64,000 nucleotides of DNA, taken from assembly GCA_016186115.1 (NCBI GenBank), contig JACPMK010000002.1, forward strand, positions 200,983 through 264,982, read 5' to 3'. Below the pieces are notes generated by a model. That model saw nothing but the letters and a program-made list of their open reading frames with translations, was not told where the DNA came from and made no database searches. The stretch is from Candidatus Wildermuthbacteria bacterium. GTDB taxonomy: Bacteria; Patescibacteriota; Minisyncoccia; Minisyncoccales; UBA10102. This document shows positions 6,747 to 18,646 of this stretch, piece by piece. The stretch's first letter is position 1. Each line of letters begins with the position of its first letter. The position numbers and the translations under genes were made by a program.

Positions 6747-7730
6747 TCATGTCCGTATCTCTTTTTCTAACCAAGGGATCTTCTCCCCTTTCTTTCTTCT
6801 CCACCATAGATCTTCCCAGATGTAGTGAACGGCAAGCTGCTTGTATTCTCCGTATCGCTCAAAGTATTTCAACAGCCGCTTTACAGAAACAGGATTTTCC
6901 GGACTTTGGTTAAAGAATAGCTTTGAGTATATTTTCTGTTCCCATGGGGAAACGTGGTTGAAGAAGTCCCAGTGATGAAAAACATCAAACAAGAGGTACC
7001 ACACGGTGGCTGGTCCTACACCATAGAGTTTGAGGAGTTCTTGCATTTGCGTTTCTCTGTCTTGCTCACGGAGTTTTTCTTCATCAAGACCATTGATAAA
7101 CTGCTCATCTATCTTCTTTATGGATTTTGCTCGGTATCCTACCTTCAAAGCTCGCAGTTCTTGCTCATTTACATTCTTTAATCTTCCGGGCTCCCAGAAA
7201 CACCAAAGCTTCTTATCATCAAACTCAACTAAGGTGCCGTAGCACTCCAATAGGTTTTGGAACATTTGAATAGATCTTCTCACAGAAGCATTCTGCAAAA
7301 CAATGCCGATAATGAGGTACTCGTAGAGAGAGCTTGGATGGCCTGGGCGCATGCCTCTCAGTTTCTTGATGGCAGGCCCTACTAACCTGTCTTTGCTGAA
7401 TCTTCTGTAAAACTCTTTCAAATCAAGGTTTAAGTTGTAGCGGTACTCTACTTCTTTTTTCAACGAATCAATGAAACTTCTGCTTAACTTTTTTCCTGCA
7501 AAGATGGACAGGGCAATCAGGGGTTTGGCGACTGTGCCTTTATTCTCAAACTTTAACCCCAAACACTTTCCTTTCCACGCCCATGTCTGCCATCTTGTGC
7601 CCGGCTGCCAAAGATTATCTCCCGACGTGAAGTGGCCTGGTTTGTGAAAAGTAGGGTCAAAAGCAAAAGGAACTGTGGGCTTTATGCGAACAGTGGTTTT
7701 GTGAGTAAGTTTCTTTACCCTTTTGGCCAT
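6747..7730 (-). CDS. HhH-GPD superfamily DNA glycosylase-like protein (AlkA/Ogg-like)
   Basis: 327-aa ORF with a helix-hairpin-helix element LLKLYGVGPATVWYLL preceded by LKVGYRAKSIKKI. The exact specificity cannot be judged by eye. Confidence 0.5.
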   Translation of the reverse strand: MAKRVKKLTHKTTVRIKPTVPFAFDPTFHKPGHFTSGDNLWQPGTRWQTWAWKGKCLGLKFENKGTVAKPLIALSIFAGKKLSRSFIDSLKKEVEYRYNLNLDLKEFYRRFSKDRLVGPAIKKLRGMRPGHPSSLYEYLIIGIVLQNASVRRSIQMFQNLLECYGTLVEFDDKKLWCFWEPGRLKNVNEQELRALKVGYRAKSIKKIDEQFINGLDEEKLREQDRETQMQELLKLYGVGPATVWYLLFDVFHHWDFFNHVSPWEQKIYSKLFFNQSPENPVSVKRLLKYFERYGEYKQLAVHYIWEDLWWRRKKGEKIPWLEKEIRT

Positions 7731-8143
7731 GGGTAGTTGATAATCTCACGAAGCTTCAATCGCTCCAGTACTTTTCCATGCTCGTCTAGGAGAATAATCT
7801 CTGTATTGTGCCTTGAGCGCAAAGAACTTTCCCATAAAAGTTGCTTGCACATATGGCAGGGATAGATTGAGTCGTCTCCACCTGCGGGAGTATTCCCCAC
7901 AACGGCAATCGCCGCAATTTCATACTCTCCGTGGGCTGCCGCATGGGCGAGAACCGCCTGTTCTGCGTGAAGCGTCAGGGAGTAGGTATCTGAAAAGTAC
8001 TGGCCCGAGGAGTAAATACTGCCCTTCCCGGTTAACACCGCTGCGCCAATTCTAAAATCGCCTGGCTGATTGGTGCCGGTAAAAGCATTCCTCATTCCCT
8101 CTATCGCAGCTTGTATGAGTTTCTGTTCGATTGTTTGATCCAT
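7715..8143 (-). CDS. cdd: Cytidine deaminase family protein
   Basis: 142-aa ORF with zinc-site motifs HAEQ and PCHMCKQ (PCxxC) at the usual spacing. Confidence 0.7.
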   Translation of the reverse strand: MDQTIEQKLIQAAIEGMRNAFTGTNQPGDFRIGAAVLTGKGSIYSSGQYFSDTYSLTLHAEQAVLAHAAAHGEYEIAAIAVVGNTPAGGDDSIYPCHMCKQLLWESSLRSRHNTEIILLDEHGKVLERLKLREIINYPWPKG

Positions 8144-8743: not shown

Positions 8744-9805
8744 TCAGCCGTGTTTTATTTCAATAACATCCCCGTCTCTAACAACGTATTCTTTCCCTTC
8801 GGTTCGAATCAATCCCTCTGCCATGGCTTCCGCAAGGCCGCCGGCTTCCAGCAATGCATCCCATTGAATTACCGCGGCCCGAATAAAATTTTTCTCAAAA
8901 TCGCTATGAATCACCCCTCCGGCTTGCGGCGCTTTTGCTCCCCGCACAATAGTCCATGCGCGTGTTTCATCGGGGCCGGTGGTAAAAAAAGTAATGAGAT
9001 TTAATATTTCGTACGCCCGTTGAATCAGTTCTGACAAATTCGATTGCATTCCAAGTTCTTGGCGTTCGTTGTCTGAAAGTCCGGCAATTTCTAATTCCTC
9101 TTGGAGATTTACCGCAACAAAAGAGCCGTGCGCCTTTTCTATGTTTTGTTTCAGTTCCAAAGGAATATCTTGGTTTTTTGAATTCAAAAGAAAAATAATT
9201 GGTTTGGCAGTAAGAAGCTGCAGTTCATGGAACACCGGCTCGCTTTCGGGATGCGATCTTTGATATTCCGTAGCTCGTACGCCCTGTTCAAAGAATTTTT
9301 TTGCATCCTGGAGAATTTGATTCTGCGCAATAGCTTCTTTTTTTCCCCCTCGCGCCTCCTTTTCCAAAGATAGAAGTCGTTTTTCTACTGTTTCCAAATC
9401 CTTCAGAAGCAACTCGGTGTGAATGGTATCAATATCGCGCAAAGGGTCAACGCTTTCCTCCACATGAATAATATCGGGATTCTCAAAACAGCGCACAACT
9501 TCTACAATTGCTGACACTTCTCGAATATGTGTCAAAAATTGATTGCCCAACCCTTCGCCCTTATTTGCGCCGCGCACTAACCCCGCAATATCAACAAATT
9601 CGATAACCGTAGGAATGATTTTTTGTGAATGAAAAAGCGCTGCGAGCTTTTGGAGCCGCTCATCGGGAACCTCCACTACCCCGACATTGGGATCAATCGT
9701 CGCGAACGGATAGTTGGCAATATTAACTTCTTTTTTTGTCAGCGCCTGAAATAATGTGGATTTCCCCACATTCGGCAGCCCCACAATTCCGACGGATAAG
9801 CTCAT
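8744..9805 (-). CDS. ychF: Ribosome-binding ATPase YchF
   Basis: 353-aa ORF with P-loop [11 protein letters not shown], motifs [10 protein letters not shown] and DIAGLV, and a C-terminal TGS-like end. Confidence 0.95.
   Translation of the reverse strand: MSLSVGIVGLPNVGKSTLFQALTKKEVNIANYPFATIDPNVGVVEVPDERLQKLAALFHSQKIIPTVIEFVDIAGLVRGANKGEGLGNQFLTHIREVSAIVEVVRCFENPDIIHVEESVDPLRDIDTIHTELLLKDLETVEKRLLSLEKEARGGKKEAIAQNQILQDAKKFFEQGVRATEYQRSHPESEPVFHELQLLTAKPIIFLLNSKNQDIPLELKQNIEKAHGSFVAVNLQEELEIAGLSDNERQELGMQSNLSELIQRAYEILNLITFFTTGPDETRAWTIVRGAKAPQAGGVIHSDFEKNFIRAAVIQWDALLEAGGLAEAMAEGLIRTEGKEYVVRDGDVIEIKHG
9738..9805 (-). repeat. Direct repeat copy 1 (first 68 nt of ychF)
   Basis: Identical at 66 of 68 positions (my count) to 14651-14718. 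Similarity drops sharply beyond that point. Confidence 0.85.
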
Positions 9806-9842: not shown

Positions 9843-10850
9843 TTAGTATACAGGTTTTTCTCCCAGCATCCAGTCAATCTCTTGTCGTAGTTTCTTCGTA
9901 TTACCATGGGTAATCATGCCAAGATACGATTGAACCGTTGCCATGTTCCTTCGTTTACGTTCTATGCCACGGAACATCCTTCGCTTCGTCACGGTTCGCA
10001 GTACCCGATGATCTGGGAAATGTACCCACCCGAGAAAATCTACTCCAGAAGCAACGGTTTGTATAAATGTTTTGTCGGGATGCAATTGAAGCCGCAAGTT
10101 GCTCCATAGAAAATCGCTGATTTTCGAGAGTATGTTTTCAAGCAATGTTCTATCTTTTGACAGAATAATAAAATCGTCAGCATAACGAATATAATATCTT
10201 ACCTTCAGTTTGTGCTTCAGAAACTGGTCAAACCTATTCATATATACATTCACCAAGAGCTGGGATGTAAGGTTGCCAAGCGGCAATCCAATTCCATTTC
10301 TGGTTGAATAAAAACTCCGAACGATTTGAGAAATAAGCCATACGGTATCTTCGTCTGGTATAAAACCTTTAATGATTCCCAAGAGTTTGCCTTGGTCTAT
10401 TGAGGCAAAGAACTTTTTTATATCAGATTTTAAGACCCACGCTGTTTTTGTATTATTTTTAGAAGCCCTATATGCAAAAACGCGAAACCTGTTGATTGCC
10501 CTATGTGTTCCTTTCCCAAGTCTGCAGGAATGAGAATCGGCTATAAAAGTTCTATCAAAGAACGGATATAATCTTCTGTAGAGAGCGTGGTGCAGCAATC
10601 TGTCTCTGACACTTGCCTTGTGAATGCTTCTTGGCTTCGGATCAGATATATTAAAGGCGTGATAAGGTGAATGTTTATACGTTTTGGCCACAAGGTCATC
10701 GTGGATAGAAATGATATTGCTCATCAAATTGTGTTCAAACTCTTGTACATCTTGGCGAGACCGTTTGCCAGTTACAAACTCTTTCCAAGCTTCAAGCAGA
10801 TTTTCAAGAGAAATGATATAATTATAGTTATGAGTGAATTGAACGTTCAT
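9843..10850 (-). CDS. Diversity-generating retroelement reverse transcriptase
   Basis: 335-aa ORF with RT motifs 1-7, including YIRYADDFIIL and the DGR-diagnostic motif 4 LPLGNLTSQ ([I/L]GxxxSQ). No maturase or endonuclease domain. The cognate TR/VR pair lies adjacent. Confidence 0.9.
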   Translation of the reverse strand: MNVQFTHNYNYIISLENLLEAWKEFVTGKRSRQDVQEFEHNLMSNIISIHDDLVAKTYKHSPYHAFNISDPKPRSIHKASVRDRLLHHALYRRLYPFFDRTFIADSHSCRLGKGTHRAINRFRVFAYRASKNNTKTAWVLKSDIKKFFASIDQGKLLGIIKGFIPDEDTVWLISQIVRSFYSTRNGIGLPLGNLTSQLLVNVYMNRFDQFLKHKLKVRYYIRYADDFIILSKDRTLLENILSKISDFLWSNLRLQLHPDKTFIQTVASGVDFLGWVHFPDHRVLRTVTKRRMFRGIERKRRNMATVQSYLGMITHGNTKKLRQEIDWMLGEKPVY

Positions 10851-11246
10851 AAAAAATCTTTTCAGGTAAGCCCCCCCCCACGCCTTTTACCGCTTCTTCA
10901 GAAATTGAAAGAGGCATATCTTGCGTGGTACGGCTACTACCAAATCTTACCTAAACTCCATCGCCATTCTCTTGGGCAAAGGATTGATACTCTTTTTGTC
11001 GAAATCATTGAAGCTGTTGCAATGGCAAGTTTTCTTTCTCCTCAACAAAAACATCCTTACGTGCGCCTTTCCATAAGAAAGCTTGATACATTAAAAATAC
11101 TCTTGATGGTTCTTTGGGAGACAAAATCTGTTGATGATAAAAAGTACATTGCTGTCTCTATAAAAATAAACGAGATTGGCAGAATGCTTGGCGGATGGAA
11201 CGGCCAATTACAGAAACAAAACTCTCCCGATAAGAGAGAGAAATGA
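10830..11246 (+). CDS. avd: DGR accessory variability determinant (Avd, four-helix-bundle protein)
   Basis: Avd-like pattern LP..QKLKEAYLAWYGYYQILPKLHRHSLGQRID and a C-terminal NEIGRMLGGW, comparable to EVGRILGSW of Bordetella phage bAvd. It lies on the opposite strand to RT, TR and target. The ATG at 10830 is the only canonical start, and it overlaps the RT start divergently by 21 nt, so the start is uncertain. Confidence 0.75.
   Translation: MSELNVHKKSFQVSPPPRLLPLLQKLKEAYLAWYGYYQILPKLHRHSLGQRIDTLFVEIIEAVAMASFLSPQQKHPYVRLSIRKLDTLKILLMVLWETKSVDDKKYIAVSIKINEIGRMLGGWNGQLQKQNSPDKREK
10871..10879. repeat. C9/G9 homopolymer tract
   Basis: Nine consecutive C residues encoding SPPP near the avd 5' end (codons 14-17 from ATG 10830), 21-29 nt upstream of the RT start on the other strand. 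Confidence 0.9.
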
Positions 11247-11252
11247 AGTAAG

Positions 11253-11389
11253 TTGCGGGGCAGGACGAAAGCCCACCGATTGTCAGGATTCCAGACATTG
11301 TCGGGATTGCCGTTGTTGCTGTTGAGCCATAGACCATTGTCATTGTGCTCGACATTGAACACGTTGAGGTTGCCGTCCGAGTCGGTTAT
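11253..11389 (-). repeat. DGR template repeat (TR)
   Basis: 137 nt aligning without gaps to 11739-11875 (offset 486). It reads as an Asn-codon-rich frame (ITDSDGNLNVFNVEHNDNGLWLNSNNGNPDNVWNPDNRWAFVLPRN). All but one difference from the VR are at A on the minus strand. Confidence 0.85.
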
Positions 11390-11734
11390 GCACAGAGTGT
11401 CATCTCTACCACTGCCCCTTGAATACTCTCGGGGCTGTATCGTATTCGGCATCTTTAATGCCCTAACACTCTATACCAAGTAGCTTCATTTTTTGAAGTT
11501 TCTGCGTACACCGCGCTATCTCAAACCGTAGTCGGAGATACTCTGGATGTATGGATACTGGGTTCGGCAGCAGAAAACCTTGATCTTCTGCGTATTCGCC
11601 TACTTCCATTTGTATTGTATCAAAGAAAAAGCCCCGCATCCATTCTTCGCTTGCGAGCGAAGACAGATACGGGGCTACAAACTCAAGGATCAAGTTTCGA
11701 GGATCCAAAAGATCCAAGATTCAAGACCCAAGAG

Positions 11735-12379
11735 CTACTTGCGGGGCAGGACGAAAGCCCACCGAAAGCCAGGATTCCAGACACGGTCGGGATCGCCGTT
11801 GCTGCCGTCGAGCCACAGACCACTGCCATCGTGCACGACAATGAAAACGCGGAGGTTGCCGTCCGAGTCGGTGATAGGATCCATTCCGATAAGGAACCAC
11901 TCGTCCATCGGCTGGTCAAGGTACTGCTCGCGCATGGCGGGACCAACTTCACCCGGACACCTCTGAAGACCAAGCTCCAAGGCACGCTTGTAGATGAGAT
12001 CCCGTCGCGTGGCAACCTTGAAGCCCAGCTGACTGCCAGTCACAAGCACCAGGTCCACCTCAACCACTTCCTGACTGCAGGAGGTCTTGTCGAGGATCTG
12101 GCTGGCATAGGTACCGATTTGGTACTTACCCTCGTCGAGGGCCTTGCGATACTCCCTGGGCGACTTGCGAAGACCAAGCTTGACGGTCTTCCAAATCTTG
12201 AACTCGGGGACAAGGACCTGCTGATCACGCCTTAGAATGGATGCGAAGTCCCGCTCTTCCTTGATGACCTGCAAGACATTGCAGACCTCGTCAGCGTCAC
12301 GCTTCCCGTCACGGATAAGCTCTAACACTCCCGTGGTCAGATCGAGTAACCTTGCCTTCTGCTTAGTTGTCGCAACCAT
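11735..12379 (-). CDS. DGR target (variable) protein
   Basis: 214-aa ORF whose last 46 codons are the VR. The C-terminal pattern ...NGDPDRVWNPGFRWAFVLPRK resembles FGE/C-type-lectin-fold DGR targets; the fold is an inference. Spot counts suggest higher GC than neighbouring genes. Confidence 0.8.
   Translation of the reverse strand: MVATTKQKARLLDLTTGVLELIRDGKRDADEVCNVLQVIKEERDFASILRRDQQVLVPEFKIWKTVKLGLRKSPREYRKALDEGKYQIGTYASQILDKTSCSQEVVEVDLVLVTGSQLGFKVATRRDLIYKRALELGLQRCPGEVGPAMREQYLDQPMDEWFLIGMDPITDSDGNLRVFIVVHDGSGLWLDGSNGDPDRVWNPGFRWAFVLPRK
11739..11875 (-). repeat. DGR variable repeat (VR)
   Basis: Counterpart of the TR with 19 mismatches, 18 at TR adenines. This changes 13 codons (for example N to R, I, D, S or F). 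The 3'-terminal 27 nt (11739-11765) are invariant and GC-rich, as expected of an IMH-like end. Confidence 0.85.
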
Positions 12380-12544: not shown

Positions 12545-13552
12545 TTGGATACAATGGATGGCATGGTAAAACATATAACCGACAGCCAGAGAAATGAAAT
12601 CTCCGTGCTCAAACGGGCAGGACATACGCAAAAAGACATTGCCAGGATGCTTGGCAAAGATCCTTCAGCGATATCCCGAGAATTACAGAGAAACAAAAGC
12701 GACGCAGGCAGGTACTTAGCCAGAGGCGCTAAGCTGAAAACCAAGGAGCGAAGAATACAAGCGAACAAGAGGTTTAAAAAGATTGAACACAACACAAAGT
12801 TAAGAAAGTACGTTGTTAAAAAATTGAAGAAGTATCTATCTCCCGAGCAAATAGCTGGCCAATGGACCAAAAGCCATCAAAATCAGCGCATCGGCAAAGA
12901 CACCATCTACAAGTTTGTGTATGGAAAACGAAAAGACCTGGTAAAGTATCTGCGGTGTCAGAAAGGCAAGTACCGGCGCAGATATGGCACCAGGATCAGG
13001 GAAAAACAGCGAGAAGAGAGTAAAAAGCGAAGAATAGACGTGAGACCGGAAATAATCAACCTGCGCCAGAGAATCGGCGACTGGGAAGGCGATACGGTCA
13101 AGGGCAGCGGCAGATCAGGGCACATTATCACCTACGTAGAAAGAAAGTCGGGGTATCTAGTGGCCGGGGAAGCAGAGAATGCAACGGCAGAGAACATCAA
13201 CGCGTTTACCATGGGAGAGTTTAACAAGATTCCTCGCGGCAAGAGACTATCTATTACCTATGACAATGGGTCAGAGTTCGCGGGGTATGCTACCATAGAA
13301 CAAAAGACTGGAATGACCGCGTACTTCGCCTTTCCGTACCACTCATGGGAACGGGGAACCAACGAAAATACCAATGGATTGGTCAGACAGTACTTTCCGA
13401 AAGGAACCGACTTTACCGATGCGTCTCTTTCAGCAATCAGGGAAGCTGAACAGAGGTTAAACTCCAGACCAAGAAAAACGCTGGGCTTCTACACTCCATC
13501 AGAGAGGTTTTACCAACTAATCACCGGGAAGAAAATTGCGTTGGAAACTTGA
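12545..13552 (+). CDS. IS30-family DDE transposase
   Basis: 335-aa ORF with an N-terminal HTH (QRNEISVLKRAGHTQKDIARMLGKDPSAISRELQRN) and a DDE core (GDWEGD...DNGSEF...ENTNGL). I could not define the terminal inverted repeats by eye. Confidence 0.9.
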   Translation: MDTMDGMVKHITDSQRNEISVLKRAGHTQKDIARMLGKDPSAISRELQRNKSDAGRYLARGAKLKTKERRIQANKRFKKIEHNTKLRKYVVKKLKKYLSPEQIAGQWTKSHQNQRIGKDTIYKFVYGKRKDLVKYLRCQKGKYRRRYGTRIREKQREESKKRRIDVRPEIINLRQRIGDWEGDTVKGSGRSGHIITYVERKSGYLVAGEAENATAENINAFTMGEFNKIPRGKRLSITYDNGSEFAGYATIEQKTGMTAYFAFPYHSWERGTNENTNGLVRQYFPKGTDFTDASLSAIREAEQRLNSRPRKTLGFYTPSERFYQLITGKKIALET

Positions 13553-13860: not shown

Positions 13861-14226
13861 TTACAGGAGGGGGCGCGAACGGACACTGCCCGGCTCGATT
13901 ACAATTATCCGTTTACGGAAGTCTTGTTCCTCCATTCCTTCAATCAACCTTTCAACTTCTTTATAAAGGGTAGTCACCGAAACTTCATTGGGAAATCGCA
14001 AAACAACCAAACCGAGCAGTTGAGTTAATGGGAACCTAGTGGGATTGGCAAATCCGAGATCTTTTGTAACAATAACGGCTTGCTTGGCGACCGCGTAGTC
14101 AAAAACGACTTCGTCGGGTTGACCGCGAAGTTCCTGTATGTTTTTTACGCATTCTGCCTCAAATCCTTTTTCTTCAAATAAAATCCTTATTGAAGATGTG
14201 ATATTTTCATCAATAAGAAAAATCAT
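13861..14226 (-). CDS. DUF5615-type (PIN-like) putative toxin
   Basis: 121-aa ORF starting MIFLIDENI..., with a 1-nt overlap onto an upstream DUF433-like gene, which is the usual pairing for this family. Confidence 0.65.
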   Translation of the reverse strand: MIFLIDENITSSIRILFEEKGFEAECVKNIQELRGQPDEVVFDYAVAKQAVIVTKDLGFANPTRFPLTQLLGLVVLRFPNEVSVTTLYKEVERLIEGMEEQDFRKRIIVIEPGSVRSRPLL

Positions 14227-14450
14227 TATTTGGCTATGAGCATTTCTTCGCCGACAAGCTTTGCGGCATATTTCAAAGCGGCTAAAACTTGCGCGCGGGT
14301 CAATCCATACTCTTTCATCACCGCTTCAGTTGTATCCCCTGCGGCAATATGGCCAACGACAACCTCCACCGGCACTCTTGTTCCGGTGATCACAGGTTTG
14401 CCAAACTGAACTTTTGCATCTACTGTAACTTGGGGGAAAATCTCCTTCAT
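14226..14450 (-). CDS. DUF433-type putative antitoxin
   Basis: 74-aa ORF with FGKPVITGTRVPVEVVV and a C-terminal HTH-like EYGLTRAQVLAALKYA, characteristic of DUF433. Confidence 0.7.
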   Translation of the reverse strand: MKEIFPQVTVDAKVQFGKPVITGTRVPVEVVVGHIAAGDTTEAVMKEYGLTRAQVLAALKYAAKLVGEEMLIAK

Positions 14451-14484: not shown

Positions 14485-14718
14485 TCAAGCCAAACCCGCA
14501 ATATCATAAAATTCTACAATGGCAGGCACCACTTTTGCCGAATGAAAAAGCTGGGCAAGTTTATCAAGCCGTTCGTCTGGAACCTGAACCACGCCCACAT
14601 TAGGGTCAATGGTAGCAAAGGGATAATTTGCTATTGTTACCGGCTTTCTCGTCAGCGCCTGAAACAACGTGGATTTCCCCACATTCGGCAGCCCCACAAT
14701 TCCGACGGATAAGCTCAT
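14485..14718 (-). pseudogene. Truncated second copy of the ychF 5' end (77 codons)
   Basis: [51 protein letters not shown]...DIAGLA* is collinear with YchF residues 1-77 and stops right after the DxxG motif. The first 68 nt are nearly identical to ychF; the rest is diverged. Confidence 0.85.
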
Positions 14719-14824: not shown

Positions 14825-17800
14825 CTACTTAGCGCACCATTCGTAGGCGTTGCTAAACATTTTGAGCCAAGGGCTTACCTCCATTCTCCGCCATTCCTCT
14901 GGCATCCAGGGCCACTGCCACAAACGGAAACAACGTTCTGGATGAGGCATCATCGCAAGATGACGTCCGTCCGGAGAGCACAGAGCCGTAATCCCGAGTG
15001 GCGAACCATTCGGATTGTACGGATACACTTCCGTTCGATCGCCGTATGGATCGATGAATGCGAGAGGCGAAAGCTTGCGCTCTGAAACCTCCTGCGCGAC
15101 CGACTGATCAGGGTAGACCAGCAAGCCTTCACCATGAGCGACCCACACACCGAGCTTCGTCCCTTCCATGCCGGCAAGAAGCACCGACGGGCTAGGCAGA
15201 ACTTCCACCTGTACCCATCGAGACTCAAACCGGCCCGAAGTGTTGTGAACGAATCTCGGCTGCTTTTCACCGGCGATCCCTTTCCATGGAACCCATCCGA
15301 GCAGCGCCATCAGCTGACAGCCGTTGCACACGCCGAGCGAGAACGTATCCTTGCGGGCGTAGAAGCGGTCGAACATCTCCCTCAGCTTCTCATTGAAAAG
15401 AATTGTCCCTGCCCATCCTTTCGCGCTATCGAACACGTCCATGTAGGAGAAGCCACCGGCAAAGATTATGCCCTGGAATTGATCCAGATCGATCCTGCCT
15501 TCAAGGAGATCACTCATCGTGACATCCCATGGAGCAAAACCGGCAGCTGCACATGCAGCCTGCATTTCTCTGTCGCCGTTCGTGCCTTCCTCGCGCAATA
15601 CTGCAACGCGAGGCTTGTCCGACGCCTCCAAAACTTCCGGAAGCGTTGCCACTGGAGTAAACGAGAGCTGATACGACGGAGCCGTACCGATGCCGGGAAG
15701 CTGGTCATCGTGACCAGAATGTTCTTCTTCGGCACACGCAGAGTTCATCTGCAGCCCTTCGATCTTGGCACTTGTCGCCTCCCACCAGCACCGGAGTTCC
15801 ATCGTCGTACTTCTGAACAGTTCTCCGGTATCTTTCGCATCGACGCTGCATGCTGTGCTGTCGAGGGTGATTCCGATCATCGAGATCGGCACTCCGAACG
15901 ATTCGCAGATTTCAAAAACCCGCTTTTCATTCTCGGTCCCGAGTTCAATGACGAACCCGAGCTCCTCGCCAAACAGACTCGCCAGAGCTTCAGCAGCATA
16001 AGGGATGCTCACGCTGAATCCGCACCGACTCGCCATACACATCTCGGCAACTGCGGTTATGAGGCCGCCATCGCTTCGATCATGTAGAGACAGAATCAAC
16101 CTTTCGTCGATCATCTGCTGCACCGCAAGAAACTCGTTCTTGAGGAGTTTGGGATTTTCAACGTCAGGCGACTCATCGCCGAGCTGGTCGAACGCTTGAG
16201 CCAAAGCTGAACCGCCGAGGCGATTTTTACCCTGTCCAAGATCGATGAGTGCCAACGCACTTCGCCCTGGTTTCTTAATGTCCGGCGTGACCTTCTTCGT
16301 GATGTCGGGCACGGGTGCGTATCCGAGCATCACCAAACTTCCGGGAGCCTTTACGAGCTCTCCCGAAATCGTCGCAGCCATTGAAAGGCTATCCTTTCCG
16401 CCATCAACCGCGATACCGAGCCCGACCATGAGGTCAGACATAGCAACCGCAGCGTCATAGAGGAGGGCACCTTCGTGAGGCAGCTTCGCAGGCCACATCC
16501 AGTTTGCACGGCACCGGATTTCTCCGATGTCGCTGATCCGAGCCGAAGCCATGTTGGTCAGCATTTCTGCCACCGCCATTCGGGCTCCGGCTTTTGCATC
16601 GATGAGCATCTTGATCGGCTGTTCGCCGACCGCAGAAGCACTTCCTGTAAGAGCGAAGTGACTCTGCGCATTGATGCTGACATTCGCAATCGGAATCTGA
16701 GCGATCCCGCAGCATTGCTGCTGCGCTACGAGCCCAGTGACACTACGATCCACCTTGTGAACCAAGAATCCCTTAGAGCCCACGCCAGGAAGTTTGAACA
16801 CCGCCTGGATTGCTTCGCCGACAGTGACATCCGGCAAACAGAGAGGTTTGAAGCCTTCGGTCCGCCGTGTTGACTCGAACGTCTTCTGAGGCATGTTCGT
16901 GAGAATCTGCTCCAGGTTCAGTTCGACGGACGTTGTCCCGTTTTTAGTGTCTTCGACAACAACGTTTCCACTGCCATCAATTTCACCGAGGACTTCGCAG
17001 TTGACGCGCTCGCGTTTGCAGACCGACTTGAAAAGCTCGATCTGCTCCGCCCTGATCAGGAGTCCGTATCCCTCTTGGAATTCGGCGCTCCAGATTTTGA
17101 GGACGGACATCGTCTTATCGCCAAGCACGATGCCACGAATGTCGATCTTGCCGCCAAGTGGCTCAAGCAACTCCGTGAGGACATTGCTCGGACCGCCGGC
17201 GCCTTGATCGTGAATGCTCGAGATGGGATTCTTGTCTCCCATTTCGACGCAGGCCCGAATTACTCGGTTCGCACGATTCTCCATCTCCGCGTTGCCGCGT
17301 TGAACGGAGTTGAAATCGAGGTCCTCGGTATTCTCGCCCTGCATCATGCTTGAGGCTGAGCCTCCGCCTACTCCGATGGGGTAAGCAGGACCGCCGATGC
17401 GCACGATGAGCATTCCAACTTCAGACTTCTCCTTCGCAGTATGTCCGTCGAACAGATGTCCAACGCCACCGCTGTAAAGGATCGGCTTACGTGGCTCGCG
17501 CCATTCGCTTCCGAGTGTCTGACCGAAAGTTCGGGTAAAGCCCAGTGTGAGGGGTTCGCCGAACTGATTGCCGTAGCTCGATACGCCGTTGCTGCCCTCG
17601 ATGAGAATCGAAAGCGGCGAAGCGTACTTCGACGGCTTGTCCTTGCCGACAACCTCGCCCGGAATTTGATATCCAGGAATGAAAAGGTTCCCGACAAAGT
17701 AACCGGCGACGCCGATGCCAACGATGCCTCCGCGTCCGACCGCACTGTTGTCGCGTATCCGTCCGCCGGAACCCGTTTGGGCTCCAGGGAAAGGCGCGAC

Positions 17801-18646
17801 GAAGGTCGGATGGTTATGCGTTTCCGCGGTGCAGGTGATGTGAACCACCTTATCGAGAATTCGCATTTCCGAAGGCTTGCCCGGAGTGACTGGAAGGATC
17901 AGGCGTGTGTCAAATCCCTTGATCACGCCGGCGTTGTCTTTGAAGGCAACGAGGCTGCAGTTGTCACTGCCGAGACTTTTCAGCGGTCGCTGAACGATCT
18001 CAAACAACGTCTCCTGCATTGGTGTTCCGTCGATGACGATTTGGCCTTTGAAGTACCAATGCCGGCTGTGCTCGCTGTTTGCGTTGCCCAGCTGGAACAA
18101 TTCGACATCGGTCGGATTCCTGCGAAGGACTTCCGCAAAGAGATGTTGATAGTACTCAAGATCCCGGGCATCCATGCCAAGGCCAAAAGCACCGTTCATC
18201 TCCTCGAGCGCGACTTTTCCGCGACCCATGAGGTCGATCACTCGGACATCTTCCGGCGTGGTACCGGTGTCAAAGCTCTCGATCCCGTTCGGGTAGTGCT
18301 GCTCGGTCATCCGATCAAAACGAGTCTTGAGGATGTCTGCCGACTGGCCGTTTCCGGCAGCGTAGCGGTGAGTGCGTTCAATGCGCGTGATCTGCCAAAG
18401 CCCCATGGCCTGACAAATCGATACGGCATTCGACGAGAACGGAGTCTCGATCGAAAGCCGGGGTCCGATTTCCACAGCTTCCGAAGCTGAGATGTAAGGT
18501 TCGATTCCGGTGTTACCGGGCTCGAACGTTTCTGCGATGAGCCATTGGAGCTGCTTGAGCTCCGGCTCGGACAACTGATCTATGGTCTCGATGTAGAAAC
18601 CAAGATCCAAGCCGTCATTGATCTGGCGGTACATGCGATAGATCAT
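14825..18646 (-). CDS. purL: Phosphoribosylformylglycinamidine synthase, single-chain large form
   Basis: 1273-aa ORF with an N-terminal domain, duplicated PurM-like synthetase domains, and a C-terminal glutaminase domain (GVCNGCQLM nucleophile, HGEG, PHPER). It appears intact. Sampled lines run 55-60% GC. Confidence 0.95.
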   Translation of the reverse strand: MIYRMYRQINDGLDLGFYIETIDQLSEPELKQLQWLIAETFEPGNTGIEPYISASEAVEIGPRLSIETPFSSNAVSICQAMGLWQITRIERTHRYAAGNGQSADILKTRFDRMTEQHYPNGIESFDTGTTPEDVRVIDLMGRGKVALEEMNGAFGLGMDARDLEYYQHLFAEVLRRNPTDVELFQLGNANSEHSRHWYFKGQIVIDGTPMQETLFEIVQRPLKSLGSDNCSLVAFKDNAGVIKGFDTRLILPVTPGKPSEMRILDKVVHITCTAETHNHPTFVAPFPGAQTGSGGRIRDNSAVGRGGIVGIGVAGYFVGNLFIPGYQIPGEVVGKDKPSKYASPLSILIEGSNGVSSYGNQFGEPLTLGFTRTFGQTLGSEWREPRKPILYSGGVGHLFDGHTAKEKSEVGMLIVRIGGPAYPIGVGGGSASSMMQGENTEDLDFNSVQRGNAEMENRANRVIRACVEMGDKNPISSIHDQGAGGPSNVLTELLEPLGGKIDIRGIVLGDKTMSVLKIWSAEFQEGYGLLIRAEQIELFKSVCKRERVNCEVLGEIDGSGNVVVEDTKNGTTSVELNLEQILTNMPQKTFESTRRTEGFKPLCLPDVTVGEAIQAVFKLPGVGSKGFLVHKVDRSVTGLVAQQQCCGIAQIPIANVSINAQSHFALTGSASAVGEQPIKMLIDAKAGARMAVAEMLTNMASARISDIGEIRCRANWMWPAKLPHEGALLYDAAVAMSDLMVGLGIAVDGGKDSLSMAATISGELVKAPGSLVMLGYAPVPDITKKVTPDIKKPGRSALALIDLGQGKNRLGGSALAQAFDQLGDESPDVENPKLLKNEFLAVQQMIDERLILSLHDRSDGGLITAVAEMCMASRCGFSVSIPYAAEALASLFGEELGFVIELGTENEKRVFEICESFGVPISMIGITLDSTACSVDAKDTGELFRSTTMELRCWWEATSAKIEGLQMNSACAEEEHSGHDDQLPGIGTAPSYQLSFTPVATLPEVLEASDKPRVAVLREEGTNGDREMQAACAAAGFAPWDVTMSDLLEGRIDLDQFQGIIFAGGFSYMDVFDSAKGWAGTILFNEKLREMFDRFYARKDTFSLGVCNGCQLMALLGWVPWKGIAGEKQPRFVHNTSGRFESRWVQVEVLPSPSVLLAGMEGTKLGVWVAHGEGLLVYPDQSVAQEVSERKLSPLAFIDPYGDRTEVYPYNPNGSPLGITALCSPDGRHLAMMPHPERCFRLWQWPWMPEEWRRMEVSPWLKMFSNAYEWCAK

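Follow-up and report, generated by a model that had tools for sequence, protein, structure and literature searches.

Composition of the DGR locus

The window, a 64,000-nt stretch of DNA from Candidatus Wildermuthbacteria, contains a complete DGR with all parts present (Table 1). The reverse transcriptase (RT) carries the DGR-type motif LGNLTSQ at residue 191, the pattern [ILV]GxxxSQ being the criterion of a DGR-type RT, and it scores below the cutoffs of all group II, retron and DRT models in NCBIfam. The avd product scores 43.2 bits with the Pfam family bAvd, whose gathering score of 40 it passes, and matches the NCBIfam model DivGenRetAVD with an E-value of 5e-17 and 62 bits, below the model cutoff of 80. 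No other ORF on either strand between 10850 and 11740 has a Pfam match that would make it a second Avd. On the Pfam and NCBIfam results we rejected a minus-strand Avd and any other identity of the plus-strand ORF, which the initial annotation had named as Avd.

The template repeat (TR) and the variable repeat (VR) align over 137 nt with 86% identity, and 18 of 19 mismatches fall at TR adenines in the minus-strand reading. Their final 27 nt past the last adenine mismatch are identical and GC-rich, forming a common IMH-like end, and VR ends with the stop codon of the target gene. Searches of the target protein against Pfam and NCBIfam gave no match; a homologous target is present in 14 related loci. 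Across the locus alignment a hairpin with a T run is found at the same position 3' of the target gene, the GC hairpin itself being variable. The CTTNG short repeats have a density of 4.0 per 100 nt after VR and 0.7 elsewhere in 59 loci.

All coordinates in the initial annotation were confirmed, with RT, TR, VR and target on the minus strand and avd on the plus strand between TR and RT. The same is true of the relations it described between these genes: the avd stop codon (11244-11246) and the TR 3' end (11253) are convergent and 6 nt apart, and the divergent avd and RT genes overlap at their 5' ends by 21 nt (ATG codons at 10830 and 10850, respectively). The 402 nt from the RT start to the TR end are occupied by avd.

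Three further contigs, each from a different sequencing run, are 100% identical to the locus, including VR; as consensus assemblies they would mask minority variants. With an identical RT and an identical VR, these contigs give no sign of current DGR activity. The adjacency of the DGR and ychF was considered as conserved context and rejected, as none of the 80 relatives has it.

Table 1. Features of the DGR locus and predicted RNA elements (positions in the window; elements read on the minus strand are given 5' to 3' where written with a hyphen).
Feature	Position	Strand	Remarks
DGR reverse transcriptase gene	9843..10850	-	335 aa; RVT_1 domain, E 1.6e-23
Extended -10-like box TGATATAAT	10814..10822	+	7 nt before avd ATG, inside RT codons; read from sequence
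avd accessory gene	10830..11246	+	138 aa; divergent from RT, convergent with TR
C9 simple-sequence repeat	10871..10879	+	Avd codons 14-17; G9 on RT strand
Intrinsic-terminator-like hairpin and U tract	11214..11240	-	terminator scan; antisense in last avd codons
Post-TR hairpin arms	11240-11234, 11228-11222	-	
U tract	11221-11214	-	
a' strand of predicted helix P0, CUUCAUUU	11241..11248	-	directly 3' of TR
Template repeat (TR)	11253..11389	-	137 nt; direct repeat of VR
Structured 5' leader of predicted TR RNA	11390..11607	-	covariation across loci
Leader P5	11435-11414	-	
Leader P4	11461-11449	-	
Leader P3	11475-11465 with 11401-11391	-	
Leader invariant ACUUGGU	11481-11475	-	
Leader a strand (helix P0)	11492-11484	-	
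Leader P2	11551-11507	-	
Leader P1	11591-11570	-	
Extended -10-like box TGATACAAT for predicted TR RNA	11614..11622	-	aligned consensus TGnTAnA(A/C)T
Terminator-like hairpin and T run	11622..11676	-	3' of target gene; arms 11676-11670, 11636-11630; read from sequence
CTTNG short repeats	11680..11733	-	period 7-8 nt; directly 3' of target stop codon and VR
Target gene	11735..12379	-	214 aa; VR is its 3' end
Variable repeat (VR)	11739..11875	-	3' end of target gene

Gene order and its distribution

Wu et al. 2018 (NAR 46:11, PMC5758913) described the DGR architecture B3, TR-(avd)-RT with avd on the reverse strand, which makes up 90% of that survey's CPR DGR set, and one DGR clade (clade 2) is restricted to Patescibacteria (Roux et al. 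2021, PMC8144416). The window coordinates give the same core order of TR, reverse-strand avd and RT. The 80 closest RT loci, 59-74% identical, come nearly all from Patescibacteria/CPR MAGs, and avd is inverted next to RT in each of the 76 informative relatives, that is, those with upstream DNA. The TR end lies between -6 and +27 nt from the avd stop codon in 54 of 59 loci. The inverted avd is the family norm in Patescibacteria DGRs, and the locus is an ordinary CPR-lineage DGR with the order target(VR) - TR - avd (opposite strand) - RT; its initial description as non-canonical does not stand. As a layout already catalogued as usual among CPR DGRs it brings nothing new, and the leader RNA and the junction repeat are the parts that deserve attention.

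The layout is nevertheless unlike that of Bordetella phage BPP-1, as had been stated initially. BPP-1 has the order mtd-avd-TR-Sp-brt, and both the primer and the elements that bind RT and Avd lie in its 140-nt non-coding TR-brt spacer (Handa et al. 2018, PMC6182149; bioRxiv 10.1101/2023.10.23.563531). This spacer is essential in BPP-1, and B3 elements have an opposite-strand gene there. The known DGR biochemistry and structures all come from BPP-1. A survey comparison showing the layout to be both common and functionally characterised had been named as what would refute the initial reading; the layout is common and catalogued, whereas the literature searched contained no functional study of it. 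B3, the most abundant environmental DGR lineage, is a norm for which that literature offered no mechanistic account. The main text of the Wu et al. 2018 survey makes no mention of a promoter for TR, of a leader RNA, of a terminator past TR or of an avd/RT repeat.

Putative promoter and structured leader upstream of TR

In most loci an extended -10-like box is found 228-245 nt upstream of TR. Its column counts in 59 loci are T53 G46 T55 A55 A50 T53, and the window has the variant TGATACAAT. The region between the box and TR could fold into a structured 5' leader. The consensus structure obtained with RNAalifold has 44 pairs, of which 40 show compensatory changes. Paired cells make up 94.1% in the leader versus 39-49% in slid controls, the covariation score is 0.80 versus 0.14-0.20 in these controls, and none of 500 shuffles reaches the observed values. 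G-U pairs are abundant (one pair is UG in 55 of 59 sequences), so that only the TR/RT-sense strand fits. The predicted window RNA (11607-11212) has a fold z of -3.55, and its fold recovers P1-P5 and the terminal hairpin.

A profile of the leader (nhmmer) finds a single copy in the window and in each of 68 loci, always abutting TR. The leader has no match at E<=1 in Rfam, including the RT-1 to RT-19 motifs (Weinberg et al. 2017). A covarying primer-template duplex between the leader and the TR 3' end was also looked for. No cognate-specific complementarity was seen between leader segments and the last 30 nt of TR, in a test that a 4-bp duplex would escape.

Predicted long-range helix and hairpin downstream of TR

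The segment CUUCAUUU directly 3' of TR, which spans the avd stop codon in antisense, potentially pairs with the a strand of the leader to form the long-range helix P0. The duplex energy is -6.6 kcal/mol for cognate and -4.3 kcal/mol for non-cognate combinations (permutation p<1e-4), and among the leader segments only the a strand gives a signal. The upstream strand of P0 lies ~95-103 nt before TR. Another pairing of the post-TR segment, with the RNA 5' end, appears in the single-sequence MFE fold of the window and is unsupported across loci (p = 0.65).

P0 is followed by a hairpin that is present in 58 of 59 loci with 50 distinct 5' arms and a stem of 7-13 bp. Its arms form duplexes of -13.4 kcal/mol in cognate and -7.3 kcal/mol in non-cognate combinations (p<1e-4). 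A conserved UUUUGUUU tract comes next to it in nearly all loci, on its 3' side; a GC-containing hairpin with a U tract directly 3' is the sequence pattern of an intrinsic terminator. Because the U tract also codes for residues of Avd, protein constraint could account for some of its conservation. We infer the TR promoter, terminator and RNA ends from consensus signals, and little is established about promoters in CPR bacteria.

Simple repeat at the avd/RT junction

The box TGATATAAT upstream of avd hints, by its placement, at a leaderless avd mRNA; a promoter scan near the avd start chose a weaker site that overlaps this box. For RT the window itself offers no convincing promoter, and its -10-like hexamer past the G run is poor.

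The C9 repeat lies 20 nt upstream of the RT start. A simple-sequence repeat (SSR) occupies the same junction position in 71 of 76 relatives, and in a few of them the C run is replaced by (CA)n, (AG)n or (CT)n. Two metagenome contigs (L086 and L089) differ by C10 versus C9 and otherwise show 0 mismatches in 2384 nt; this one-C difference, for which an assembly error is possible, flips the avd reading frame. In the population of the window itself no polymorphism of the C9 tract or of VR was seen: the three further contigs do not differ from the window, and scanning metagenomes with the window flanks returned nothing. SSR contingency loci are marked by a simple repeat, in a promoter spacer or a 5' coding region, whose length is polymorphic between otherwise identical sequences; the junction repeat shows this pattern and appears hypermutable.

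Proposed organization of the TR transcript

The -10 box, the leader, P0, the hairpin and the unstructured antisense avd together make TR look like a self-contained RNA of ~0.4 kb. We consider it probable, from the comparative sequence evidence, that the locus is a known B3 DGR whose TR is expressed as such a separate RNA. Conserved signals suggest that TR would not be co-transcribed with RT and would have its own non-coding RNA. Its transcription could start from the extended -10 promoter just past the target-gene terminator, and the RNA would comprise the structured leader (P1-P5, ~220 nt) followed by TR. In P0, the 8 nt immediately 3' of TR would pair with the leader, enclosing P3-P5 and TR. 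The 3' end would lie at the hairpin and U tract, antisense to the final ~11 codons of avd, which is convergent. Of the two possibilities raised by the initial annotation, separate TR and RT transcription units or antisense regulation of avd, the former is favoured by the -10 box, the structured leader and the post-TR hairpin with its U tract.

Antisense avd as a spacer of about 400 nt was initially thought to be needed in any TR-to-RT transcript. Such a read-through RNA would bind RT-Avd and prime in the way of BPP-1, whose TR-brt spacer provides both the primer and the elements that bind the proteins. The window indeed has no clear independent RT promoter, and intrinsic terminators are often leaky. 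The conserved signals suggest that this spacer is not required: 150 nt of antisense avd past the U tract yield 0 consensus pairs in 59 sequences, and the way they are conserved seems to fit coding constraint and not RNA structure. Moreover, the conserved hairpin and U tract stand directly 3' of TR, and the strongly covarying RNA is found upstream of TR instead. Taken together, this makes read-through very unlikely as the source of the functional RNA. A different role for the hairpin would place the RNA 3' end elsewhere, the hairpin being only an Avd-binding stem-loop and not a terminator. Stem-loops of this kind were predicted just past TR in 207 of 278 Avd-containing DGRs, CPR included (Handa et al., bioRxiv 10.1101/2023.10.23.563531), and they resemble the hairpin here, with its stem of 7-13 bp, in length. 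The UUUUGUUU tract after the hairpin in nearly all loci and the lack of structure past it speak against an exclusive Avd-binding role; in addition, relative to the downstream strand of the flanking duplex, the stem-loop comes first in BPP-1 and the hairpin comes second here. We find this role on its own unlikely, and the terminator and Avd-binding functions are compatible with each other.

The convergent arrangement could also be regulatory, with the tail of the TR RNA or read-through from either side controlling avd, or avd transcription controlling the TR RNA. The predicted TR RNA covers the last ~33 nt of avd (11214-11246), and no obvious terminator belongs to avd, whose transcription would run antisense through TR. 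The overlap is short, however, and its sequence is explained by P0 and the hairpin, both of which covary as RNA; such regulation seems quite unlikely. Finally, the interval between VR and TR contains an 84-aa ORF (11463-11717) that might encode a small accessory protein, and tblastn finds similarity to it in 34 related loci with E-values down to 1e-22. ORFs across the leader region are not conserved among relatives, which read the same nucleotides in other frames or with stops; the 84-aa ORF has no Pfam or NCBIfam match, its 5' part spans the terminator-like hairpin and the -10 box, and the conservation is explained by base-pair covariation. We therefore rejected this ORF as an accessory protein, and a coding role for the interval is scarcely credible.

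For the self-contained TR RNA we speculate further that the leader could supply most of the elements found in the 140-nt spacer of BPP-1, which there hold the RT-Avd complex and set up priming, and that the RNA may have a permuted topology resembling that of retron msr-msd RNA. The avd and RT genes might be expressed back to back, from promoters within each other's first codons and with the mutable repeat between them. Extended to B3 DGRs in general, we tentatively suggest, as a possibility that we hold with some doubt, a permuted retron-like RNA that dispenses with a BPP-1-like spacer 3' of TR and in which the leader recruits RT-Avd and sets up priming, P0 closes over TR and the terminator lies within avd, combined with an SSR that gates the retroelement. 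The gating repeat would belong both to the 5' coding region of avd and to the RT promoter/5' region.

Together, leader, closing helix and hairpin delimit a specific predicted RNA of ~0.4 kb, which makes the question of cDNA priming directly testable with the cognate RT-Avd. If the junction repeat does switch avd or RT on and off, bacteria with tiny genomes would have in it a simple means of limiting the cost of hypermutation. If an SSR gates the retroelement, mutagenesis itself would be phase-variable.

Comparison with known systems

In comparison with B3 elements (Wu et al. 2018; clade 2 of Roux et al. 2021), the locus has identical order and orientation with the target upstream, and there is no difference in layout. 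Avd, adenine-specific TR/VR mismatches, the IMH-like end and relatives among Patescibacteria MAGs are common to both.

With BPP-1 the locus shares RT and Avd, adenine mutagenesis from TR to VR, a flanking duplex in the form of the predicted helix P0, and a stem-loop near the TR 3' end. The avd gene of BPP-1 lies upstream of TR and shares its strand, whereas here it is on the opposite strand and fills the TR-RT interval. A non-coding TR-RT spacer with conserved structure is absent here (0 consensus pairs over 150 nt in 59 sequences), and a large covarying RNA domain is found 5' of TR instead. The P0 geometry is mirrored, with the downstream strand abutting TR and the upstream strand ~95-103 nt before it, and the RNA appears to terminate ~40 nt past TR.

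Retron msr-msd RNAs have a structured RNA 5' of the template, and inverted repeats enclose both so that the template 3' end is near the 5' strand. The likeness of the predicted TR RNA to them is in topology only, with P0 predicted to enclose a leader domain and TR. The Rfam search gave no match, and a branched priming G was not identified. The RT here is of DGR type and scores 20-61 bits with the retron NCBIfam models versus cutoffs of 235-450, and its product serves mutagenic homing into VR.

SSR contingency loci include poly-G/C tracts in promoters and 5' coding regions of Neisseria or Bordetella. The junction repeat resembles them in being an 8-11 nt homopolymer or a dinucleotide repeat at a fixed place in a 5' coding region/promoter spacer, and in its length variation between close relatives, including a 1-nt frame flip. 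It differs in what it would gate, a system of mutagenesis and not a surface antigen.

Composition and layout of the DGR locus

The window holds a complete diversity-generating retroelement (DGR), composed of genes for a reverse transcriptase (RT), a target protein and the accessory protein Avd, together with a template repeat (TR) and a variable repeat (VR). Domain, repeat and ORF searches bore out all element positions and strands in the initial annotation, including the identity of the plus-strand avd gene. The NCBIfam model DivGenRetAVD also matches this ORF with an E-value of 5e-17, under the model cutoff, and no other ORF in 10850-11740 on either strand, hence no rival Avd-like one, has a family match. 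Eighteen of the 19 differences between TR and VR fall at TR adenines in the minus-strand reading. A gap of 6 nt separates the avd stop codon (11244-11246) from the TR 3' end (11253), the ATG ends of avd (10830) and RT (10850) overlap by 21 nt, and the TR end is 402 nt from the RT start.

Features of the DGR locus in the window
Feature	Position	Strand	Evidence or description
RT, 335 aa	9843-10850	-	RVT_1 domain, E 1.6e-23; LGNLTSQ motif at residue 191
avd, 138 aa	10830-11246	+	Pfam bAvd, score above gathering score
C9 run	10871-10879	+	At avd/RT junction
Terminator-like hairpin	11240-11222	-	Terminator scan; U tract 11221-11214
TR	11253-11389	-	137-nt repeat pair with VR, 86% identical
Leader RNA	11390-11607	-	~220 nt, very strong covariation, upstream of TR
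Putative extended -10 box	11622-11614	-	Consensus TGnTAnA(A/C)T; T53 G46 T55 A55 A50 T53 of 59
VR	11739-11875	-	3' end of target gene
Target gene, 214 aa	11735-12379	-	Ends in VR

The initial annotation called the inversion of avd between TR and RT non-canonical, which holds relative to the Bordetella phage BPP-1 DGR (mtd-avd-TR-spacer-brt) but not relative to the literature. Wu et al. 2018 (PMC5758913) class DGR cassettes according to how TR, RT and the accessory genes follow one another; their architecture B3 is TR-(avd)-RT, where parentheses mark the reverse strand, and makes up 90% of their CPR set. They add that a cassette with parts on separate strands needs two or more transcription units. 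A Patescibacteria-restricted DGR clade has also been described (Roux et al. 2021, PMC8144416). With the window RT we fetched 80 loci from species-representative genomes (59-74% identity), nearly all labeled as Patescibacteria/CPR MAGs. For 76 of them the sequence extends upstream of RT, and in every one avd is on the strand opposite to RT and adjoins or overlaps the RT start. An adenine-biased TR/VR pair is detectable on the RT strand in 58 of these 76 loci, which together with the window constitute a 59-locus set; TR ends -6 to +27 nt from the avd stop in 54 of the 59, and VR lies another 240-480 nt upstream of TR. The inverted avd is the norm of this DGR family and was already known. As to whether the layout is common and functionally characterized, a question raised with the initial annotation, it is common, and no functional characterization was found in the literature searched.

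A full-length ychF GTPase gene (8744-9805, minus strand) abuts the RT 3' end, and a 77-aa N-terminal ychF fragment (14485-14718, minus strand; identical to the full gene at 63 of 77 amino acids and 177 of 231 nucleotides) lies 4.7 kb from it, beside a 1273-aa ORF (14825-18646). Between the two copies are the DGR, an IS30-like transposase (12545-13552) and a DUF5615/DUF433 pair (13861-14450), an arrangement that suggests insertion of an island at ychF; in none of the relatives does ychF adjoin the DGR. Just beyond ychF (6747-8143, minus strand) lie two further genes, one whose HhH-GPD match is weak and below cutoff, the other encoding a cytidine/deoxycytidylate deaminase domain.

Structured leader RNA upstream of TR

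A tblastn search showed nucleotide-level conservation of the VR–TR interval in 34 loci. A protein-coding gene was ruled out, as relatives read the same bases in other frames or meet stops. A 131-aa ORF (11057-11452, minus strand) that runs from the leader 3' end across TR into antisense avd is an annotated gene in public assemblies; it has no family match and is most likely an artefact of TR preserving the target reading frame. Starting from VR, the aligned interval contains CTTNG repeats, a GC hairpin with a T run, the TGnTAnA(A/C)T box, and about 220 nt leading to TR. The variable GC hairpin and T run form the putative terminator of the target gene. The CTTNG repeats, with a period of 7-8 nt, directly follow the target stop codon in the window (11680-11733, minus strand) and occur at the same post-VR position in 58 related loci, with a density of 4.0 per 100 nt after VR versus 0.7 elsewhere. 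Since TR has no such repeats downstream, they could help to mark the VR site.

For the leader, RNAalifold predicts five helices (P1–P5) with 44 pairs, 40 of them with compensatory changes. In the predicted structure 94.1% of cells are paired and the covariation score is 0.80; sliding the partners by 1-3 columns lowers these values to 39-49% and 0.14-0.20, and none of 500 shuffles reached the observed values. Many pairs are predominantly G-U and would become A-C mismatches if the opposite strand were transcribed, which places the structure on the TR/RT-sense transcript. Invariant unpaired motifs are UUGGU, GAUACAG, GUGG and AGAUGG. A profile search found exactly one leader copy per locus in 68 loci and the window, always abutting TR, and Rfam 15 contained no match at E<=1. 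We regard the leader as a candidate for a new, CPR DGR-specific RNA family.

In unrelated loci, the loops of P1 and P2 repeatedly carry small GC-rich hairpin insertions. In alignments A1/A2, GCCTGCC...GGCAGGC hairpins are inserted in L004, L019, L065 and L075, and CCACAGTAGGTGATTCTACTGAATCAGG-like hairpins in L058 and L069; they resemble miniature mobile insertions that the loops can accommodate. Locus L056 has a second, partial leader copy (P1–P2 only; 7481-7641, plus strand) downstream of RT, after a second target-like gene (6809-7369), which may be a remnant of another cassette.

Post-TR hairpin and long-range helix P0

On the TR/RT strand, essentially every locus has a short conserved segment 3' of TR (consensus CTCTTCATTT), followed by a hairpin and TTTTGTTT. 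Of the 59 loci, 58 have the hairpin, which is antisense inside the final avd codons, and its 5' arm comes in 50 versions. Cognate arms pair at -13.4 kcal/mol; when arms are exchanged among loci, the value is -7.3 (p<1e-4). A stretch of 150 nt of antisense avd past the U tract served as a negative control and yielded no consensus pairs in 59 sequences.

The post-TR segment CUUCAUUU (11248-11241) is complementary to the leader sequence AAAAUGAAG (11492-11484), approximately 95-103 nt upstream of TR. This duplex, termed P0, is predicted at -6.6 kcal/mol for cognate and -4.3 for non-cognate strands (p<1e-4), and other leader segments gave no signal with the post-TR segment. P0 would therefore enclose the P3–P5 domain and TR. 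No covarying duplex between the leader and the TR 3' end, of a kind that might hold the priming nucleotide, was found.

Simple repeat at the avd/RT junction

The start codons of avd and RT overlap, so each gene's promoter must sit within the first codons of the other. The sequence TGATATAAT (10814-10822, plus strand) is 7 nt ahead of the avd ATG, a proximity that hints at a leaderless avd mRNA. Where the window has its C9 run, 71 of 76 relatives (L002–L079) have an equivalent simple repeat. It is usually a C/G run of 8-11, with lengths of 6-14 in most relatives, and the (CA)n, (AG)n or (CT)n variants in a few loci argue for selection on repetitiveness, not on proline codons. On the RT strand, a TAnnAT-like hexamer typically comes directly after the G run, and the RT ATG most commonly starts 13 nt past the run (23 loci).

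On the avd strand, the repeat stands between an upstream ATG and the Avd core. In the window and in only 27 of the 71 relatives this ATG is in frame with the core; in the other 44 relatives it is out of frame, near the random expectation. Over 2384 nt, metagenome contigs L086 and L089 differ only in the run itself, C10 in L086 (~1081-1090) against C9 in L089 (~7025-7033), and avd is in frame in just one of them. These observations fit slipped-strand phase variation of avd, RT or both, by which the junction repeat may exert phase-variable control of the DGR; homopolymer assembly error and an unrecognized start codon are possible alternatives. Three further contigs, from the window's own population, are invariant.

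Proposed TR RNA and comparison with known systems

From the conserved signals we infer a self-contained TR RNA, apart from RT. TR would be transcribed as its own ~0.4 kb RNA, roughly from 11607 to 11214 on the minus strand, starting at the extended -10 promoter and ending at the intrinsic-terminator-like hairpin. With a self-contained TR RNA, RT would therefore be a separate transcription unit, and an antisense-avd spacer would be unneeded. The signals favor one alternative of the initial annotation, separate TR and RT units; its puzzle, a spacer of about 400 nt of antisense avd, would fall away, given a hairpin and U tract right after TR and zero consensus pairs beyond.

Neither Rfam nor the literature searched contains the leader RNA, P0, the terminator-like hairpin or the junction repeat; an earlier description is possible.

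In the BPP-1 RNP, Avd binds a stem-loop after TR and RT binds a distal one, with TR flanked by an upstream:downstream duplex (Handa et al., bioRxiv 10.1101/2023.10.23.563531). The folding in that study was of single sequences and covered no more than 40 nt on the upstream and 100 nt on the downstream side of TR, limits that would have missed the leader and the upstream strand of P0. Its authors would likely read the post-TR hairpin as an Avd-binding stem-loop, a reading that does not conflict with a role as terminator. By analogy, the 5' leader and P0 could stand in for the BPP-1 spacer and play its roles with the order of elements permuted.

The window locus agrees with architecture B3, and with the DGR family as such, on every feature that could be tested, and departs from the BPP-1 RNA arrangement in its defining feature, the spacer. 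In retron msr-msd RNA, a structured RNA is followed by the template, with inverted repeats around both. We speculate that the predicted TR RNA is alike in topology, with a structured RNA, a template and enclosing inverted repeats.
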